From Candidatus Rokuibacteriota bacterium (GTDB lineage: Bacteria; Methylomirabilota; Methylomirabilia; Rokubacteriales; CSP1-6): a stretch of DNA of 64,000 nt. Every line of letters begins with the position of its first letter. Position 1 is the stretch's first letter. Positions 24,111 to 30,863 of this stretch are shown in pieces. A model generated the notes under the pieces. That model did no database searches and was not told where the DNA came from. It saw only the letters and a program-made list of their open reading frames with translations. The stretch lies in the NCBI GenBank assembly GCA_040902305.1, contig JBBDXN010000145.1:3734-67733 (forward strand). The letters are read 5' to 3'. Made by a program: the position numbers and the translations under genes.

Positions 24111-24142
24111 CCGGTCGAATCAGCCGAATTGGCAAGCGGAAG

Positions 24143-24372
24143 CCTCGGGCGCCGAGAAGGGTCCAGCTGCGAGGCGGCGCCCGAAGGCCGCACGCGAAGC
24201 GTACTTTCTGTACGTTGAGCACCCCGACCCAGGGCGCCAATGAAGTAATCGAGCCTCGATCGGCCGGCCTCGGGCGCCGAGAAGGGTCCAGCTACGAGGC
24301 GGCGCCCGAAGGTCGGGCGCGAGGCGTACTCTCTGTACGTTGAGCGCCCCGACCGAGGGCGCCAACGAAGTA
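24143..24372. repeat. tandem direct repeat, 2 x 105 bp units (about 90% identical), period 125 bp, each with internal hairpins
   Basis: Unit A 24143-24247, unit B 24268-24372. Both begin CCTCGGGCGCCGAGAAGGGTCCAGCT and end GGGCGCCAA(T/C)GAAGTA. The units fall in different reading frames. Confidence 0.8.
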
Positions 24373-24381
24373 GATGGGCCC

Positions 24382-24669
24382 TTATCGGCGCCCGAGGCCG
24401 CGGGACTGGATGCCTTGGGTGATGTCCCGGTCGAGGTCCGGCCGGCGTGCGGCACCCGGCTGGACGTCGCGCAGCATGCGGTCGGTGCGCTGGCGATCGA
24501 GCTCGCGCGCGGCCTGGTTGGTGTCCTCCTCGACCTTCCGCGGCGGCACCGGCCGGAGCGCCGGAGTGCGCGGCTTGTACTCCAGATCGAGCGGGCCCGA
24601 CTTCGTCTGGGCCGCCACGATCGCAGCACTCCCCAGCAACAGCAGCAAGGCCAGCGACAGCGTCCTCAT
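24382..24669 (-). CDS. small secreted hypothetical protein (95 aa)
   Basis: ATG 24669 preceded by GGAGGGAGCC, in track ORF 24382..24813: signal peptide MRTLSLALLLLLGSAAIVAAQ, then a charged Arg/Asp/Pro-rich region. Lies 20 nt downstream of cobA. Confidence 0.5.
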   Translation of the reverse strand: MRTLSLALLLLLGSAAIVAAQTKSGPLDLEYKPRTPALRPVPPRKVEEDTNQAARELDRQRTDRMLRDVQPGAARRPDLDRDITQGIQSRGLGRR

Positions 24670-24689: not shown

Positions 24690-25547
24690 CTAGGCGCCGC
24701 CGGGGCGCGGAGTCAAATTTTGCCGCGCTGCTCCATGCCAGGCGCCGAAGACCACCCGGGTACCCGTGGAGGGCCCCAGTGCCTCCTGTCGCCGGCCCCG
24801 CGTCCCGAGCCACTCGAGGCGCTCCCTCAGTCTCACGACCTCTCCGATGACCGCCACGACCGGCGGCGGGAGGCGCGCCGCGCGCGCCCCGGTGACGATG
24901 TCGCGAAGCGTGCCGACGACCGTCTCCTGCGCCTCGGTCGTGCCCCAGCGGATCAGGGCCACCGGCGTATCGGGAGAGCGGCCGTGGCCGATCAGCTCCG
25001 CCGCGATGCGCGGCAGGCTCTGCGCGCCCATGAGGACGACGATCGTGCCCACCGACGTGGCGAGCCGGCCCCAGTCCACCGCGGCTCGGTCCTTGCCGGG
25101 GTCCTCGTGGCCGGTCACCACCGCGAACGAGGAGGCGAGGCCCCGGTGCGTCACCGGGATGCCGGCATAGGCCGGCACCGCGACCGCGGCGCTGACGCCG
25201 GGCACGACCTCGAAGGCGATGCCCGCCTCGGCGAGGGCCAGCGCTTCTTCGCCGCCGCGGCCGAAGACGAACGGATCGCCACCCTTCAGGCGGACCACGA
25301 GGCGCCCGCGGCGCGCCTGCTCGACCAGCAGCGCGTTGATCCGCTCCTGCGGCAGGCAGTGACCGCCGCTGCGCTTGCCCGCGAAGCGCCGGAGCGCGGT
25401 GGGGGGCGCCTCATCGAGCAGAGCCGGGTTGACGAGCCGATCGTAGACGACCACCTCGGCCCGGCGCAGGACCGCGAGCCCCCGCACCGTCATGAGCCCG
25501 GGATCGCCCGGGCCCGCGCCGACGAGATAGACGCGACCGTCGCCCAT
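24690..25547 (-). CDS. cobA: uroporphyrinogen-III C-methyltransferase (SUMT)
   Basis: Track ORF 24690..25550: VYLVGAGPGDPGLMTVRG...VVRLKGGDPFVFGRGGEE...VVPGVSAA...VLMG. The ATG at 25547 is preferred (TGATG overlap with the sirC stop). Confidence 0.9.
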   Translation of the reverse strand: MGDGRVYLVGAGPGDPGLMTVRGLAVLRRAEVVVYDRLVNPALLDEAPPTALRRFAGKRSGGHCLPQERINALLVEQARRGRLVVRLKGGDPFVFGRGGEEALALAEAGIAFEVVPGVSAAVAVPAYAGIPVTHRGLASSFAVVTGHEDPGKDRAAVDWGRLATSVGTIVVLMGAQSLPRIAAELIGHGRSPDTPVALIRWGTTEAQETVVGTLRDIVTGARAARLPPPVVAVIGEVVRLRERLEWLGTRGRRQEALGPSTGTRVVFGAWHGAARQNLTPRPGGA

Positions 25548-26176
25548 CACGCGGACCCGAGGCTCCGGGCCAGCCGGGCGCGCGCCTGGCGATAGCGCTT
25601 GGCCGCGATGAGCCGGCGCAGCGTGCCGTCAAGCGCGCCGCGCCAGCGCGCCGGGCTCGGGGTCACCAGCCGCCCGCGCAGCTCCCGCCGCACGTCCGCC
25701 GCCACCTCGACCAGCCCCGCGTGATCGTCGGTGAGGTAGCCCTCCAGCTCCTCCCGGATCGCCCGCGCCGCCGCCGGGCTCGCCCCGCCGGTGGACACCG
25801 CCACCACGAGCCGCCCACGACGGATCACCGCGGGCAGGATGAAGTCGCAGCGCGCGGGCTCGTCGGCCGCGTTGACCCACACGCCGCGCTCCCGTCCCTC
25901 CGCCGCCACCGCCGCGCTGACCGTCTCGTCGCCGGCCGCGACGAGGGCGAGCCGCCGGCCCTCCAGATCGCCGGGACGATACGCGCGCGGCACGTGCTGG
26001 ATCCGCCCGGCCTCGGCCCAGGCCGCGAGGCGCGGCGTGGTGGTGAGACTCACCACCGTGACGCGCGCGCCCGCGGCCAGCAGGCCCTCGACCTTCCCCT
26101 CGGCCACCGGACCGCCCCCGATCACGAGGCAGGGACGGTCCGCGAGGTCGAGGAAGGCGGGGTAGTAGGTGCTCAC
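25547..26176 (-). CDS. sirC: precorrin-2 dehydrogenase / sirohydrochlorin ferrochelatase (CysG N-terminal / SirC / Met8-like)
   Basis: Track ORF of 209 aa (GTG start): YYPAFLDLADRPCLVIGGGPVAEGKVEGLLAAGARVTVV...NAADEPARCDFILPAV... Confidence 0.8.
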   Translation of the reverse strand: MSTYYPAFLDLADRPCLVIGGGPVAEGKVEGLLAAGARVTVVSLTTTPRLAAWAEAGRIQHVPRAYRPGDLEGRRLALVAAGDETVSAAVAAEGRERGVWVNAADEPARCDFILPAVIRRGRLVVAVSTGGASPAAARAIREELEGYLTDDHAGLVEVAADVRRELRGRLVTPSPARWRGALDGTLRRLIAAKRYRQARARLARSLGSA

Positions 26177-26177
26177 C

Positions 26178-26276
26178 TCAACGATCGGGCTGGATGCGAG
26201 GCCACCGGGTCGATCGAGGGCCGGCGGTCGTCTCGGCCTGGAAGTCGGGAGCGGTGTCGCCCAGTCGTAGCGTCAT
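26178..26276 (-). pseudogene. 32-codon ORF resembling the N-terminus of a 1-Cys peroxiredoxin (probable gene relic)
   Basis: GAGGAGAG-6 nt-ATG 26276: MTLRLGDTAPDFQAETTAGP then unrelated RSTRWPRIQPDR-stop. The first 20 aa match the conserved start of Prx6/LsfA-type peroxiredoxins as I recall them. Confidence 0.4.
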
Positions 26277-26310
26277 GGTCGTCTCTCCTCGTGATAGGTG
26301 TGGCCGGTCG

Positions 26311-28011
26311 TCAGCCGTCGAGCCCCTGCGGAACCGGGCCCGGTGATGCGTCGCGGGTCACCGCCGCGACCTCGGCGCCGGCCAGGAAGGTTCGGATCTC
26401 TTCGTCGGTGCGATCGGCGCAGAAGGCGCGGAACGTCTGGCCCTCGCGGCGCTCGGCCACGTAGGCGCGCAGCAGGCGCTCCACCGCCTCCGGCACCTCG
26501 GGGGCGGGGATCCGATAGCCGATGGGCCGCGCCACCGCCTGCTGCCGGCCCACCGCGCCGCCCACGCAAAAGTAGTAGGCGTCCACCAGGCGGCCGTCCA
26601 CCTTGACCTTCTTGCCTTCGATGCCGATGTCGGCGATCCAGTGCTGGCCGCAGCTATTGGGGCAGCCGGTGACGTTGATCCGCACGTGCTCCTGGAAGCC
26701 GGGCAGCCGGTCCTCGAGCTGCTCGACGAGCCAGCCGGCGAAGCCCTTGGTCTCGGTCAGCGCGAGCTTGCAGAACTCGCTGCCCGTGCAGGCCACGGTG
26801 CCGCGACGGAACGGCGAGCCGTCCAGCCGGAAGCCCTTGCGGTCGACCTCGCGCTCGAGCTCGCCCGCGCGGGCGCGCGGCACGTTGACGATCACGAGGT
26901 TCTGCATGGTGGTGGCCCGCAGCTCCCCGGTGCCGAAGCGGTCCGCGAGGGCGGCGAGGCCCCGCATCTCCGGCGGGGTGAGCCGCCCACGGAGAATCGG
27001 CAGGCCCGCGTAGACGAGACCGGCCTGCTTCTGCGGATGGATCCCCACGTGATCGCGATAGGCTTCGTCGGGCAGGGTCTCGGCCACCGCGGGATCCAGC
27101 CGGAAGCCCAGCCGCGTTTCGAGCTCGTGGAGGAACCGGTCGGAGGTCCACCCGTGGTCGAGGAAGAGGAACTTCAGCCGCGCCTTCTCGCGGTTCTGGC
27201 GGAGCACGTCGCTGTCCCGGAAGATCTCCGAGACGCCCTTGACCACCGCGAGCACCTGATCCGGCCGCACGAAGGCGTCGAGCCGGGACGCGAGACGCGG
27301 CTGGGTGGAGAGCCCACCGCCCACGCGCAGCGAGTAGCCCACGTGCCCGCGGTAGCCGTCGCGCACCGCGCTGAGCCCCACGTCGTTGATCTCGGGATAG
27401 CTGCACCAGACGCGGCAGCCGGTGATCGAGACCTTGTACTTGCGCGGCAGGTTGTAGAACTCCGGGCTGCCGTTGACCATGGCGGTGACCGCGTGCACCA
27501 GGGGCGAGGCATCCACGATCTCGTCGGCGTCGAGCCCGGCCAGCGCGCAGCCCGTGACGTTACGCGTGACGTCGCCGCAGGTGCCGAGGCTGCTGAGCCC
27601 GCACCCCCCCAGGGCCGAGAAGATCGTCGGCAGATCCTCGATCCGCACCCAGTGGAGCTGGACGTTCTGGCGCACCGTGAGGTCCGCGACCCCCCGGGCG
27701 TGGCGCTCGGCCAGATCGGCCAGGACGCGGAGCTGGGCGGCGGTCATGATGCCGTTCGGGATGCGGATGCGCAGCATGAAATACGGCACCGCCCGGCCCT
27801 CGCCGCCCTTGCCGCCGACGGCCCCCGCCCCGTCGCCCTGGGTATAGATGCCCCACCAGCGGAAATAGGTGCCGAGCCACTCCGCGGGAATCGCCTCGAA
27901 GCCCTCGCGGGCGAAGCGCTCGATCTCCGAGTAGGCGGCCCACGGGTTCAGCTCCCGCTTGAGCCGCTCCACCCGCTGCGCCTTGGTCTCTCTCACCACG
28001 GTTTCGCTCAC
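26311..28011 (-). CDS. sir: ferredoxin-dependent sulfite (or nitrite) reductase, siroheme/4Fe-4S hemoprotein
   Basis: GTG 28011 preceded by GGAAGGAG, in track ORF 26311..28062: ...GTCGDVTRNVTGC...TGCRVWCS... and ...VACTGSEFCKLALTETK...NVTGCPNSCGQH (siroheme-cluster Cys motifs). Sulfite versus nitrite specificity cannot be resolved by eye; the context (siroheme genes, Cys leader) favours sulfite. Confidence 0.9.
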   Translation of the reverse strand: MSETVVRETKAQRVERLKRELNPWAAYSEIERFAREGFEAIPAEWLGTYFRWWGIYTQGDGAGAVGGKGGEGRAVPYFMLRIRIPNGIMTAAQLRVLADLAERHARGVADLTVRQNVQLHWVRIEDLPTIFSALGGCGLSSLGTCGDVTRNVTGCALAGLDADEIVDASPLVHAVTAMVNGSPEFYNLPRKYKVSITGCRVWCSYPEINDVGLSAVRDGYRGHVGYSLRVGGGLSTQPRLASRLDAFVRPDQVLAVVKGVSEIFRDSDVLRQNREKARLKFLFLDHGWTSDRFLHELETRLGFRLDPAVAETLPDEAYRDHVGIHPQKQAGLVYAGLPILRGRLTPPEMRGLAALADRFGTGELRATTMQNLVIVNVPRARAGELEREVDRKGFRLDGSPFRRGTVACTGSEFCKLALTETKGFAGWLVEQLEDRLPGFQEHVRINVTGCPNSCGQHWIADIGIEGKKVKVDGRLVDAYYFCVGGAVGRQQAVARPIGYRIPAPEVPEAVERLLRAYVAERREGQTFRAFCADRTDEEIRTFLAGAEVAAVTRDASPGPVPQGLDG

Positions 28012-28026
28012 GCGCGCTCCTTCCCC

Positions 28027-28078
28027 TAAAACACGAAAGCCGAGCGGCGGCCGCCTCTTCACGGCCCCCGCTCGGCTT
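28027..28078 (-). terminator. intrinsic terminator / attenuator hairpin immediately upstream of the sir SD
   Basis: Minus strand: AAGCCGAGCGGGGGCC-GUGAAGAGGC-GGCCGCCGCUCGGCUU (16 bp, 1 mismatch), followed by UCGUGUUUUAGG, then GGAAGGAG and GTG 28011. Confidence 0.7.
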
Positions 28079-28105
28079 GCGTCTCGGTGCGACGACGTTC
28101 GGCTG

Positions 28106-28177
28106 CTAGAAGGCCCCCCGGTCCCCTGCTGGACAACAACAGAAGTGCTGGGCGACGCTGATCATGACCTGCTTCAT
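28106..28177 (-). CDS. poly-Cys leader sORF, 23 aa (MKQVMISVAQHFCCCPAGDRGAF)
   Basis: ATG 28177 ... TGT TGT TGT (28141-28133) ... TAG 28108-28106. No SD; a -10 box lies 7 nt upstream (leaderless geometry). Sits between the promoter and the terminator upstream of sulfite reductase. Confidence 0.5.
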   Translation of the reverse strand: MKQVMISVAQHFCCCPAGDRGAF

Positions 28178-28184
28178 GCCGCGA

Positions 28185-28214
28185 ATACTAGTCTAACTCG
28201 AGTGATATTGTCAA
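28185..28214 (-). promoter_or_regulatory. sigma70-like promoter: TTGACA - 18 nt - TAGTAT
   Basis: -35 TTGACA at 28214-28209 (contains the mscS-like stop TGA), -10 TAGTAT at 28190-28185. Locally AT-rich in a 70% GC genome. Confidence 0.45.
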
Positions 28215-29011
28215 GAACTCATAAGTACCCGAACTTCTTGCTTCGGAAGCGGCGTCGGGACGCCGGACGCGGCGAACCGGTCGGCCAGGCTCTTGTAGAT
28301 CTCGGCTTCGCCGGGGACGACGTCCGGCACCCGCACCCAGGGGTTCACGCCCACCCGGACCCCGACCAGCTCGAGCTGCGCCACGCCCACCACCGGAGCC
28401 GGGTCGACGAGCACGCGGGGGTTGGCGGTGACGACCTCGCGGATCATGGCCAGCACCGCGGCGAGGTCCGAGCCGTGCGGCACCATCACGCTCAGGTGGA
28501 TCTGCCGGGTGTGGCCGAAGTTGTGGAGGATCTCGCCCACGATCTTGCGGTTGGGAATGATGATGCGGGAGCGGTCGGGATGCAGCAGGGTGGTGGAGAA
28601 CAGCTCGACGGTGTGCACGTCCCCCTTCTCCCCGACCACCTCGATGTGCTCGCCCACCCGGAACGGCTTGGTGAAGATGATGGTGAGCCCCGCGATGACG
28701 TTGCCGAGCACCCCCTGCAGCGCGATGCCGATGCCGATGCCCGCGACGCCGATGCCCGCGACGAGCGGGGCGATCTGGAAGCCGAACTTGTCGAGCGCGA
28801 TCACCAGCGCGAACAGGACGACGACGATTCTCACGACTCGGACCATCAGCCGGCGCATCGGCGGCTCGAGCGCCATCCGGGTGAGCGGCCGCTCCACCGC
28901 CTTGCCCACCCACCAGGCGGCCATGAAGCCGGCCGCGAGGATCACGAGCGCGCCGAGGACCTGAAACCCGTAGCGGATCGCGAGATCCAGGACCAGATCC
29001 GGGATGGGCAT
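28211..29011 (-). CDS. mechanosensitive ion channel family protein (MscS-like)
   Basis: ATG 29011 preceded by GGGAGG, in track ORF 28211..29029: ...LQGVLGNVIAGLTIIFTKPFRVGEHIEV...GDVHTVELFSTTLLHPDRSRIIIPN... Confidence 0.85.
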   Translation of the reverse strand: MPIPDLVLDLAIRYGFQVLGALVILAAGFMAAWWVGKAVERPLTRMALEPPMRRLMVRVVRIVVVLFALVIALDKFGFQIAPLVAGIGVAGIGIGIALQGVLGNVIAGLTIIFTKPFRVGEHIEVVGEKGDVHTVELFSTTLLHPDRSRIIIPNRKIVGEILHNFGHTRQIHLSVMVPHGSDLAAVLAMIREVVTANPRVLVDPAPVVGVAQLELVGVRVGVNPWVRVPDVVPGEAEIYKSLADRFAASGVPTPLPKQEVRVLMSS

Positions 29012-29069
29012 GGTCGCCTCCCTGCTCATGACCGCGAGCCGTGAGCGTGCATCAGTCTCTCCGCCCGCC

Positions 29070-29657
29070 TCACCGCTCCTTGGTCAGGAAGGTGTCGTTG
29101 CGGTTCTTCGACCAGCACGCCTCGTTCTTCTCGCTGCAGCCGGGCCGCTCCTCGCCGTAGGAGATCGTCGTGATGCGGGAGGCCTCGATCCCCTGGGAGA
29201 CGAGGTAGTTCATGGCCGCCTTGGCCCGCCGCTCGCCCAGGGCGAGGTTGTACTCGGAGGTGCCGCGCTCGTCGCAGTGCCCCTCGATCAGCACGAGCTG
29301 ATTGGAATTGGCCTTGAGGTAGGCCGCGCCGGCGTCGAGCGTCTTGGCGTCCTCGGGCCGCACGTCCGACTTGTCGAACGAGAAGAAGATCGGCTTGAGC
29401 GCGGAGTTGGCCCGGTACTCCTTGGGCGGCGCCGGCGCAGGAGCCGGTGCGGCGGTCGGCGGCGCGACTGGAGCCGGCGCCACCGGGGCGGGCGCCGGGG
29501 CCGGCGCGGCGGGAGTGGGCGGCGCGGCCGCGGGGGGCGGCACGGGCGGCGGCGCGGTGGCCGCGGTCATGGCAGGGCGCTTGGGACAGCCCGCGAGAAG
29601 GAGGGTGAGGGAGACGATCGGCAGCAGCGCGGCGACGGTTCGCACGTGTCCATTCAT
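29070..29657 (-). CDS. pal: peptidoglycan-associated lipoprotein (OmpA-family C-terminal domain)
   Basis: ATG 29657 (AGGAGG 8 nt upstream) in track ORF 29070..29663. Lipobox LLLAGC, Pro/Ala linker, then ...IFFSFDKSDVRPE...LVLIEGHCDERGTSEYNLALGERRA... Confidence 0.9.
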   Translation of the reverse strand: MNGHVRTVAALLPIVSLTLLLAGCPKRPAMTAATAPPPVPPPAAAPPTPAAPAPAPAPVAPAPVAPPTAAPAPAPAPPKEYRANSALKPIFFSFDKSDVRPEDAKTLDAGAAYLKANSNQLVLIEGHCDERGTSEYNLALGERRAKAAMNYLVSQGIEASRITTISYGEERPGCSEKNEACWSKNRNDTFLTKER

Positions 29658-29690
29658 GGTCAAGTCCTCCTAATTGGTCTCCATGTTTGA

Positions 29691-30863
29691 CTACTTTTTC
29701 ATGCGCTGTTCGAGACCGCGCAGCAGCCTCTCCGCCTGGTCGATGTTGCGGCGGGCATTGGCGTTCCCCGGGTCCATCTCGAGCACCACGCGCCACTCCG
29801 CGATGGCTTCCCGGAGCTTCTCCTCGCGGTAGTAGCGTACGCCCCGCGTGTAGTGCTGCTCGATGAAGCGAGTGCGGGCCTGCCGGAGCAGGGCCGGCGT
29901 ATCCTCGTAGTCGGGCTGCAGCCGCGCGAGCTGAGTCAGGCTCTGGATGGACTCGCCGTACTGCCGCGCGGTCATCTGGCCCTTGGCCTGGCCGTAGAGG
30001 GCCTGCTTCTTCAGCGTCAGCCCGTCGCGGTCACCCGGTTTGCCGGCCAGGAACTTGTCCACCGTCGTGATGGCGTCCGGATAGTCGTTGCGCTCGAGCG
30101 CCTCCCGGGCCTCCGCGAGCAACGGATTGACCTCGGGCGTGAACTCGTCCTTGGTCGCGGGCGCGCCGGGCGCCGCGGGCCCGGGGGCCGGGCCGGGCCG
30201 CGGCACGTCGGGGGTGGGGACGGCCGCCACCGCGGGCGCGGGCCGGCGCGCCTCCGGATGGATGAACGGGACGCCCGGGATCTCGGGAATCTTCAGCGTG
30301 GTGCCGGCGGCCAGGCGTGGATTGGGCGGCAGCTGATTGGTCTCCCAGATCACCTCCGACCGCGAGCGGTCGCCGTAGTACCGCTGGGCGAGGGCGGTCA
30401 GGGTATCCCCCGCCCGCACGGTGTGGGTGATGGACTCGACCTCGCGCGTGTCGCTCTGCAGCGCCTCGAAGGCGGCGCGGTTCGACGGGTCGAGGGCGAG
30501 CGCGGCCAGGAACTGCCGCCGCGCCTCCACGTGCACCCCCCGGCCAAGGGCCTTGCGCCCCTCGTCGAGCCGCTCCGCCCCCGCCTGGGCGATTCGCGCC
30601 TGCAGGGCGCGCAGGGACTCGCGCGCCCTGGCATCGCCCGGCGTGATCGCGAGCGCGATCTTCCATTCCTCGGCGGCGCGCCGGAGCTGGCCGTCGCGCT
30701 CCAGCACCTCCGCCTGCTCGCGGTGCCGGGCCGCGAGCGGATCCCGCGCGATGGGGGCGGCCCCCGCGGCGGGCTCGCTCGGTGCGCCGGTCAGCATCGC
30801 GCAGCCGCCGAGCGCCAGGGCGAGCGCCGCGGCGGCGAGCCATCCTCGCTCGGTGGGCTTCAC
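29691..30863 (-). CDS. lipoprotein with TPR repeats and a LysM domain
   Basis: GTG 30863 (GTGA overlap) in track ORF 29691..31838. Lipobox LALGGC; LysM HTVRAGDTLTALAQRYYGDRSRSEVIWETNQL...GTTLKIP; TPR-like helices on both sides. Confidence 0.75.
   Translation of the reverse strand: MKPTERGWLAAAALALALGGCAMLTGAPSEPAAGAAPIARDPLAARHREQAEVLERDGQLRRAAEEWKIALAITPGDARARESLRALQARIAQAGAERLDEGRKALGRGVHVEARRQFLAALALDPSNRAAFEALQSDTREVESITHTVRAGDTLTALAQRYYGDRSRSEVIWETNQLPPNPRLAAGTTLKIPEIPGVPFIHPEARRPAPAVAAVPTPDVPRPGPAPGPAAPGAPATKDEFTPEVNPLLAEAREALERNDYPDAITTVDKFLAGKPGDRDGLTLKKQALYGQAKGQMTARQYGESIQSLTQLARLQPDYEDTPALLRQARTRFIEQHYTRGVRYYREEKLREAIAEWRVVLEMDPGNANARRNIDQAERLLRGLEQRMKK

Follow-up and report, generated by a model that had tools for sequence, protein, structure and literature searches.

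Does the short space in front of a sulfite reductase gene from an uncultured soil phylum hold a sensor for cysteine? The gene, sir, heads the putative sir-sirC-cobA operon in a 64-kb stretch of DNA from a Candidatus Rokuibacteriota bacterium (hereafter the window, meaning this whole stretch). Between sir and the MscS-like gene upstream of it lie, on the minus strand, a promoter-like site, a short open reading frame (sORF) with three successive cysteine codons, and an intrinsic terminator. On balance, this element is probably a ribosome-mediated, cysteine-responsive transcription attenuator of the sir-sirC-cobA operon, a reading built on what can be seen directly: the layout, its conservation, the codon bias, the synteny, and the lack of a promoter after the terminator. 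To our knowledge, cysteine was for a long time without any described leader-peptide attenuator. New here is a candidate poly-Cys leader in an uncultured phylum, made distinctive by an apparently leaderless start that is coupled to an intrinsic terminator, by a predicted pairing segment at the extreme 5' end of the transcript, and by a probable origin from a zinc-ribbon open reading frame (ORF).

The leader module in front of sir

The promoter, sORF, terminator, and Shine-Dalgarno (SD) sequence of sir follow one another as a first-pass annotation of this DNA had laid them out, and the minus-strand sequence confirms each at the position given in Table 1. The 7 nucleotides (nt) between the -10 box and the ATG read TCGCGGC and hold no SD-like motif. 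A consensus scan of positions 27500-28800 finds this promoter as the sole promoter-like site, with 10/12 consensus matches where shuffles expect 0.0, and no second site between the terminator and sir. Because the sole promoter-like site sits upstream of the terminator, transcription of sir must pass through it. The hairpin and its U tract lie between the leader ORF and sir, 17 nt from the sir GTG. The stem is built of 11 + 6 base pairs (bp) flanking one G/G mismatch, carries a 6-nt loop, and with its extended base folds at -42.6 kcal/mol; a terminator scan detected the top of the hairpin only. The module also coincides with a local minimum in GC content, 0.48 at 28150-28249 against 0.71 window-wide, as expected from the earlier description of the region as locally AT-rich.

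The run of cysteine codons has no equal in the window. The two strands of the 64 kb contain 288 ORFs of 10-60 amino acids (aa), and among them CCC occurs in the sORF alone; TGTTGTTGT has a single occurrence in the window, where neither further poly-Cys sORFs nor further copies of the promoter motif were found. Codon choice within the run is as striking as the run itself. The 37 long window ORFs with high GC at third codon positions use TGT 6 times and TGC 127 times for cysteine (6/133, TGT = 4.5%), so three successive TGT codons are highly unusual, which upholds a second claim of the first-pass annotation. Given the layout and the rarity of the CCC run, chance is an unlikely explanation.

Conservation was examined in the window's own clade, which consists of the window and eight further loci found by sir homology (L001-L003, L161-L164, and L168), with sir genes 86-90% identical to that of the window; at nine sequences the clade sample is shallow, and GGCCTTCTAGCNGCCGAACGTCG could serve as a DNA pattern for finding its poly-Cys members. 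Common to all nine loci are GTTCTTGACA, the TAGTAT box, the 7-nt spacing to the ATG, the Cys run (out of frame in L162), GGCCTTCT, CGAACGTCGTNGCACCGAGACGC, and the terminator with its U tract. GTTCTTGACA is also kept more widely, at Rokubacterial sir loci whose upstream genes differ. Conservation of the sORF in relatives had been proposed as a check on the attenuator idea, and the Cys run is indeed kept in 8/9 sequences. In relatives it is retained or enlarged, with 2-5 Cys in forms such as CCCPGCCPG, CSCPGCCPG, and CCCC, and in L002 and L003 the Cys codons were multiplied via a 12-nt duplication. The frame from ATG to Cys run is kept in 8/9 sequences, with indels in multiples of 3.

Identity to the window is graded along the module. 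It is 48-65% in the sORF codons ahead of the Cys run, 73-78% at sir third codon positions, 86-89% for sir overall, and 92-96% from GGCCTTCT and segment 2 (Table 1) through the end of the terminator. This grading is the pattern expected of a leader peptide, in which constraint would fall on the frame, the Cys codons, and the RNA farther downstream, and the peptide itself may vary. The position of the sORF stop varies among loci, so that GGCCTTCT is coding in some and noncoding in others, and it is invariant in all nine. One pair of the terminator shows a compensatory series, C-G in the window, U-G in L001, and U-A in L002.

The genes upstream differ between members of the clade. An MscS-like gene precedes the module in the window, L002, L162, and L164; an OmpA-like gene precedes it in L161, L163, and L168, and the flanks of L001 and L003 align with the OmpA-context loci. 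The promoter-sORF-terminator block travels with sir, not with the upstream gene. That the hairpin is the mere terminator of the MscS-like gene, an outcome that the first-pass annotation had named as fatal to its proposal, is rejected, since the same block fronts sir behind an OmpA-family gene too and no other promoter-like site precedes sir.

Table 1. Positions in the window of the leader module, the operon, and the upstream gene, with the leader sORFs of relatives
Feature	Position	Strand	Remarks
-35 box TTGACA	28214-28209	minus	overlaps TGA stop of MscS-like gene (28213-28211)
-10 box TAGTAT	28190-28185	minus	18-nt spacer from -35 box; 7 nt ahead of ATG
Leader sORF MKQVMISVAQHFCCCPAGDRGAF	28177-28106	minus	23 codons + TAG; ATG 28177, TAG 28108-28106
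TGT TGT TGT, presumed sensing codons	28141-28133	minus	codons 13-15
Segment 1	28166..28173	minus	transcript nt 5-12; AGCAGGUC in window, AGAAGGCC in most relatives
Segment 2, GGCCUUCU	28108..28115	minus	overlaps sORF stop; partners: segment 1, terminator 5' arm, sir SD
Small hairpin CGUC-GUCGCACCGA-GACG	28080..28097	minus	between segment 2 and terminator; 4 invariant pairs (RNAalifold)
Intrinsic terminator hairpin	28037..28078	minus	segments 3 + 4; 27 nt past sORF stop
U tract UUUCGUGUUUU	28028..28038	minus	U tract kept in relatives with minor changes
sir Shine-Dalgarno GGAAGGAG	28017..28024	minus	purine-rich SDs at equivalent site in relatives
sir	26311..28011	minus	GTG start at 28011; first gene of putatively regulated operon
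sirC	25547-26176	minus	siroheme synthase N-terminal domain (Pfam/NCBIfam search)
cobA	24690-25550	minus	uroporphyrinogen-III methyltransferase (Pfam/NCBIfam search)
MscS-like gene	28211-29029	minus	upstream of leader
L001 sORF MKKATGRALEHRCCCPGAA			
L002 sORF MKKAVVSRRAHRCCCPGCCPGAPQAF			
L003 sORF MQKAGGRAHRCSCPGCCPGAA			
L161 sORF MKKATGRALEHRYCCPGAA			two Cys only
L163 and L168 sORF MKKVGGAGLAHRCCCPGAA			
L164 sORF MKKAAVSAPRHCCCCPGAPQAF			

Cysteine leaders in other bacteria

A second, unrelated leader in front of the same enzyme is found in Acidobacteria. At least 73 distinct Acidobacterial (Terriglobales-type) sir loci, with sir ~64% identical to that of the window, bear a poly-Cys leader whose sequence is unrelated to the window's (loci within L012-L080 and L103-L160; e.g., L022:2807-2941 and L026:2853-2987). 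Its (near-)leaderless sORF is 28-31 aa long, has 6-10 Cys, and carries the C-terminus ...CxCxCCCCxCxCSGAGRLLT. A TTGAC-like -35 box occurs in 58 of the loci and a TANNNT box 5-11 nt ahead of the in-frame ATG in 60/73, compared with 2.7% at random positions, and none of the 73 has an SD ahead of the sORF. TGT makes up 65% of the leader Cys codons versus 11.5% in the long ORFs of the same loci. The leader has an intrinsic terminator with a U tract, and the terminator covaries (0/500 shuffles reach the observed score). Within the sORF, the codons UCUGGCGCGGGG resemble the 3' arm of the terminator, UCUGGCGGUGGG, and hence pair with the 5' arm CCCACCGCCAGA, which places an antiterminator inside the sORF; there 79.6% of cells are paired versus 30-49% when slid, and the duplex is stronger than in shuffled sequence (median z -2.3) in the same test that was null for the window clade.

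By these sequence features the Acidobacterial leader is a textbook classical attenuator for cysteine, and the proposed architecture would thus exist in front of this enzyme. It resembles the Rokubacterial leader in the enzyme that it precedes, the -10 box near the ATG without an SD, the Cys- and TGT-rich sORF, and the terminator with U tract. The Rokubacterial leader differs in its shorter sORF and in its weak antiterminator, where the Acidobacterial one is clear.

The classical leader-peptide attenuators of Proteobacteria include trpL, hisL, leuL, pheL, thrL, and ilvL, and the window element shares their plan of a promoter, tandem end-product codons in a short ORF, four potential pairing segments, an intrinsic terminator, and a biosynthetic operon. 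The use of CUA codons in leuL is a parallel to the rare synonymous codon at the presumed sensing site of the window. Unlike these systems, the window element would sense cysteine, is apparently leaderless instead of SD-led, and has an antiterminator that is short and statistically unsupported. Its segment 1 also precedes the sensing codons by 25 nt, at the extreme 5' end, whereas the classical segment 1 lies over them.

In mycobacteria, leaderless poly-Cys sORFs (the "Cys ribulon") give cysteine-responsive control (Canestrari et al. 2020; bioRxiv 10.1101/834739, Mol Microbiol 114:93). At Ms5788A control is exerted on translation, by a Cys tract that sequesters the SD through pairing; the mechanism at other loci, Ms4527 among them, was left open (10.1101/834739). 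A literature search found Ms5788A as the single experimentally dissected locus, with translational control. The likeness to these leaders that the first-pass annotation had pointed out stands, with a poly-Cys sORF at the locus of Ms4527 (10.1101/834739), presumably the same type of enzyme, and in front of this enzyme type in Acidobacteria. The shared features are an ATG at leaderless distance, at least two consecutive Cys codons near the end of an sORF that is unannotated, and a position as first cistron in an operon for the assimilation of sulfur or cysteine. In the window clade a geometry that fits a leaderless start is seen at 9/9 loci, with the -10 box 7 nt ahead of the ATG at invariant spacing and no SD, and in the window three Cys codons precede sir-sirC-cobA, a cysteine/sulfur operon. 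The differences are the host group (Rokubacteria/Methylomirabilota), the lack of sequence homology, and the intrinsic terminator with U tract between the sORF and the gene. Pairing of the Ms5788A type was looked for and rejected; the sir SD offers UGUUGUUGU no complement, and only CCUUC, 24 nt past the tract, can pair with GAAGG. Pairing between Cys tract and SD defines the Ms5788A mechanism and not the whole Cys ribulon class.

Two further sets of predicted leaders are comparable. In Rhodobacterales, uORFC-8-2 upstream of cysS is a candidate ribosome-mediated attenuator with two Cys codons and a terminator (Brewer et al. 2021; PMC8632094). It has tandem Cys at codons 14-15, close to codons 13-15 of the window, followed by a terminator stem and U run. 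It differs in preceding a cysteinyl-tRNA synthetase gene, in using predominantly UGC where the window uses UGU, in having the Cys codons within the first stem, and in its Alphaproteobacterial host, and the two share no sequence similarity. No terminator hairpins accompany the Cys leader peptides predicted in Actinobacteria, which were proposed to depend on Rho (Seliverstov et al. 2005; PMC1262725). These too are short ORFs that precede cys or cbs operons and have runs of Cys codons close to the stop; the strong intrinsic terminator sets the window apart from them.

The window element thus shares the defining layout of the known systems and is homologous to none. A search of Rfam gives no relevant match at E <= 1 in window positions 27000-29500, where only spurious eukaryotic ones appear, and no match at gathering thresholds in 10 related loci (5 of them Acidobacterial). 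The literature search found no paper on an Acidobacterial or Rokubacterial cysteine leader. If the attenuator reading is true, tandem-Cys sensing on leaderless mini-ORFs reaches past the Actinobacteria to uncultured soil phyla (Rokubacteria, Acidobacteria), leaderless Cys sensing can couple to a classical intrinsic terminator, and Cys sensing has repeatedly been recruited to the sulfite-reduction step. The leader is also a compact, testable candidate for a cysteine-responsive part.

RNA pairings, a proposed switch, and its rivals

Folding of the leader RNA suggests four potential pairing segments. RNAalifold, run on leaders cut ahead of the terminator 3' arm, finds a helix between segments 1 and 2 in which nt 5-12, AGAAGGCC (the conserved "MKKA" codons), pair with GGCCUUCU. 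The two are exact reverse complements that form 8 bp at -14.9 kcal/mol, a value reached by <=0.4% of shuffles in 5/8 leaders tested, and the helix does not overlap the sensing codons. This predicted helix between the 5' end and GGCCUUCU goes beyond what the first-pass annotation contained. Segment 2, which is invariant at all nine loci whether translated or not, has two further potential partners. It can pair with the terminator 5' arm (GGCCUUC:GGGGGCC, 7 bp including 2 G-U) at -13.1 kcal/mol in the window (range -12.9 to -13.7); of the 92 8-mers in the window leader, GGCCUUCU is the best 5'-arm partner, matched by 2% of its own permutations. It can also pair, weakly, with the sir SD (CCUUC:GAAGG) at -5 to -7.9 kcal/mol across the clade.

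Partial folds with a ribosome mask behave in the direction that an attenuator requires. With the mask at the Cys codons, the structure joining segments 2 and 3 forms at -17.6 to -22.8 kcal/mol; with the mask at the stop, the competing structure is worth merely -6 to -9.5 kcal/mol. Folding of alternative structures had been recommended as a check, and its outcome is split: the antiterminating structure forms in the Cys-stalled partial folds, but in equilibrium folding the terminator prevails in all ribosome-mask states. Because the terminator wins at equilibrium, any switch must be kinetic.

The attenuator model infers a transcription start, translation of the sORF, ribosome footprints, a choice between pairings, and a response to cysteine. 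Transcription would start at or beside the A of the ATG at 28177, and the sORF would be translated as a leaderless mRNA. With ample cysteinyl-tRNA, the ribosome would pass the three UGU codons to the stop and cover GGCCUUCU, and after its release, segment 2 could pair with segment 1 at the 5' end. In either case the terminator 5' arm would be left free, so that the -42 kcal/mol hairpin would form and RNA polymerase would halt at the U tract. With scarce cysteinyl-tRNA, the ribosome would stall at the wobble-read UGU codons 13-15, covering about nt 22-57, and a further ribosome, queued behind it at the leaderless start, would mask the 5' end together with segment 1. Segment 2, freed in this way, would pair with GGGGGCC of the 5' arm, delaying the terminator and allowing read-through into sir-sirC-cobA.

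Several observations weigh against this model. For one, the antiterminator amounts to 7 bp with 2 G-U pairs, opposing a terminator of -42 kcal/mol. The pairing that the first-pass annotation had put forward as a weak antiterminator does exist, at the energy given above, but shuffles of the whole upstream region give equal or better 5'-arm duplexes (z +0.9 to +2.7, window clade), and there is no clear co-evolution between the post-stop segment and the 5' arm (cognate -13.3 versus noncognate -12.5 kcal/mol in 29 Rokubacterial leaders). Second, the helix between segments 1 and 2 is degenerate in the window itself, where two substitutions (AGCAGGUC) reduce it to -7.7 kcal/mol, not beyond chance. 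Third, segment 1, given its position at the 5' end, would not lie under a single ribosome stalled at codons 13-15; a queued second ribosome is therefore needed, or the pairing of segments 1 and 2 has another role. Fourth, L161 has just two Cys, and L162 (~505-560) carries a +1 frameshift, an extra T at nt 12 that puts its Cys codons (TGTTGTTGT) out of frame. The extra T may be an indel error, the contig being named in the style of a long-read assembler; if real, the frameshift is a natural loss-of-sensor variant. Finally, where the window clade has the poly-Cys sORF, its nearest outgroup (sir 82-86% identical) has a zinc-ribbon ORF, so the terminator module is older than the Cys run and maybe otherwise controlled. 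The antiterminator candidate is plausible, and it is the weakest link of the model.

The outgroup introduces the strongest of the alternatives. In L082-L085 and L165-L167 (sir 82-86% identical) and in most other Rokubacteria, an ORF of 60-80 aa with two CxxC motifs (66-79 aa in the sir 82-86% set) occupies the site of the poly-Cys sORF. It is found in L005, L006, L009, L011, L013-L015, L030, L042, L050, L062, L072, L077, L082-L086, L094-L110, L120-L149, and L165-L167 (e.g., L014:2688-2888 and L083:1177-1380), with the consensus ...RCPVCRAKVV...NAILKVD..TGRV.AKC.RCKAWV.VPLRY, and a Pfam search gives it only sub-threshold generic zinc-ribbon matches. This ORF has a conserved promoter, a start at or near leaderless distance, and a homologous pre-terminator motif and terminator ahead of sir; the upper stem of the terminator is rebuilt in the zinc-ribbon clade. 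Its first and second Cys codons are TGC, the third is TGT in 16/34, and the fourth is TGT in 29/34. MAFFT places TGT TGT TGT opposite the second CxxC knuckle (TGT CCN CGC TGT), and the poly-Cys sORF is probably a recent derivative of the zinc-ribbon ORF.

The pre-terminator motif, AAGGC..A.GUCG....RAGAC..AAGCCGRG, lies directly 5' of the terminator (window 28080-28105, minus strand) at 33 Rokubacterial loci. It is kept where sir is just 65-70% identical, and a GUC/GAC hairpin of 3-4 bp is all the structure that it offers. It could be a pause site or a site for a protein or ligand. Together with the zinc-ribbon leader ORF, whose last Cys codon is biased to TGT, the motif might form an undescribed regulatory device.

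From this ancestry it could be argued that the sORF of the window is a non-sensing remnant of the zinc-ribbon ORF, with a terminator that is constitutive or leaky, or is controlled by a protein or ligand at the pre-terminator motif or by a promoter repressor. We regard this as unlikely. It would account for the homologous terminator at the same position in relatives with the CxxC...CxxC ORF, for the alignment of the TGT run with the second knuckle, for the degenerate zinc-ribbon ORFs that exist in L020, L031, and L043, for the conservation of the pre-terminator motif well outside the poly-Cys clade, and for an antiterminator without statistical support. Decay, however, should lose the frame and the Cys codons, yet 8/9 sequences keep the frame from ATG to Cys run despite the 48-65% identity of the codons between them, with indels in multiples of 3 and with the Cys codons multiplied. 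The exclusive use of the rare TGT and the Acidobacterial and mycobacterial parallels also point to selection for the Cys codons.

The attenuator reading can be extended into a wider proposal, which is tentative and, taken as a whole, somewhat unlikely to hold. Poly-Cys leaderless attenuators would have arisen independently in front of SirA-type sulfite reductase in Actinobacteria, Acidobacteria, and Rokubacteria; that of the window would be recent, made from a zinc-ribbon ORF that collapsed onto its second CxxC knuckle; and a queue of two ribosomes would gate it.

Translational control resembling that of Ms5788A, in which the anti-SD-like GGCCUUCU would pair with the sir SD across a hairpin of mainly structural or stabilizing function and the ribosome's behaviour on the sORF would set whether the SD is accessible, is quite unlikely. 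The minimum-free-energy fold of the whole leader does pair CCUUC with the SD sequence GAAGG, flanking the hairpin, the duplex of segment 2 and SD is present at -5 to -7.9 kcal/mol in all clade members, and the only dissected mycobacterial poly-Cys sORF acts on translation (10.1101/834739). But CCUUC:GAAGG is short and would be trivial for any purine-rich SD, and the Cys tract of the window, unlike that of Ms5788A, has no pairing with the SD. A ribosome stalled at codons 13-15 would also fall short of GGCCUUCU and so would not free the SD, and intrinsic terminators canonically consist of a GC-rich hairpin with an immediate U tract.

It is highly improbable that the sORF is a chance ORF, in which case the promoter-like site and hairpin would only belong to the 3' end of the MscS-like gene and sir would owe its expression to read-through or to a site elsewhere, or that it encodes a functional Cys-rich micropeptide. 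GC-rich DNA abounds in short ORFs, and the hairpin, downstream of the MscS stop, could terminate that gene too. But the block is kept behind an unrelated OmpA-family gene, and none of the other short ORFs among the 288 contains CCC; a functional micropeptide is disfavoured by a peptide that is unconserved outside the Cys run and varies in its stop position.

The sir operon and its surroundings

The sir product matches Pfam NIR_SIR and NIR_SIR_ferr, and its best solved structure is Mycobacterium tuberculosis NirA (1zj8, E = 1.4e-89), which we take to be the sulfite reductase SirA. It scores under the NCBIfam cutoffs of the NirA family models, and an identical protein is on record from a metagenome-assembled genome of Candidatus Rokuibacteriota. 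On these matches, sir is assigned as a SirA/NirA-type ferredoxin-dependent sulfite reductase, and domain searches agree with the earlier assignment of sir-sirC-cobA downstream of the leader. Ms4527 is presumably a SirA/NirA-type sulfite reductase as well, the same enzyme type as the window sir. ATP sulfurylase adjoins or is fused to sir in other Rokubacteria, which supports a putative role of sir in sulfate assimilation. The leader would likewise favour a sulfite reductase, not a nitrite reductase, label for this NirA-like enzyme.

At L004, L007, L008, L088-L093, L098, L102, and L115, sir comes directly after ATP sulfurylase (PF14306 + PF01747) or is fused to it, and the leader module is lacking; the sir-ATP sulfurylase proteins P0115 and P0120 are 961 aa long. 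In L162-L167 and L081, a peroxiredoxin gene (AhpC-TSA/1-cysPrx_C) sits between sir and sirC, where the window has a 134-nt gap only (26177-26310).

Gene calls for sir are often extended upstream. They start at a GTG in the terminator loop (window 28062-28060), are 580-583 aa long, and span the terminator 3' arm and the U tract; P0006, P0007, P0010, P0011, P0013, P0015, and P0018 are 580-aa versions. These longer forms are probably start-site mis-annotations. For metagenome annotation the rule is that gene finders never call such sORFs, and several extend sir wrongly through the terminator, giving the 580-aa forms.

A palindrome-like sequence, (A)ATCTCGATCGA(G/C)AAT, occurs in the sir promoter, in the spacer between the -35 and -10 boxes, in L014, L030, L050, L062, L072, L077, L094, L100, L120, L127, L129, L137, and L149, and looks like the operator of a dimeric regulator. 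It is not retained in the window clade, and the window reads CACTCGAGTT.

Positions 29400-29600 reach up to 0.92 GC (100-nt window) with a strong positive GC skew and adjoin an AT-rich dip at 29600-29750. A TGYTGYTGY match at 24647 was rejected as a Cys run; it is part of a CTG-rich (Leu), signal-peptide-like stretch. The ORF downstream of cobA (24120-24668, minus strand) has no Pfam or NCBIfam match. From the in-frame ATG at 24668 it would start with the signal-peptide-like MRTLSLALLLLLGSAAIVAAQ, and a shorter version of 169 aa starts at GTG 24629.

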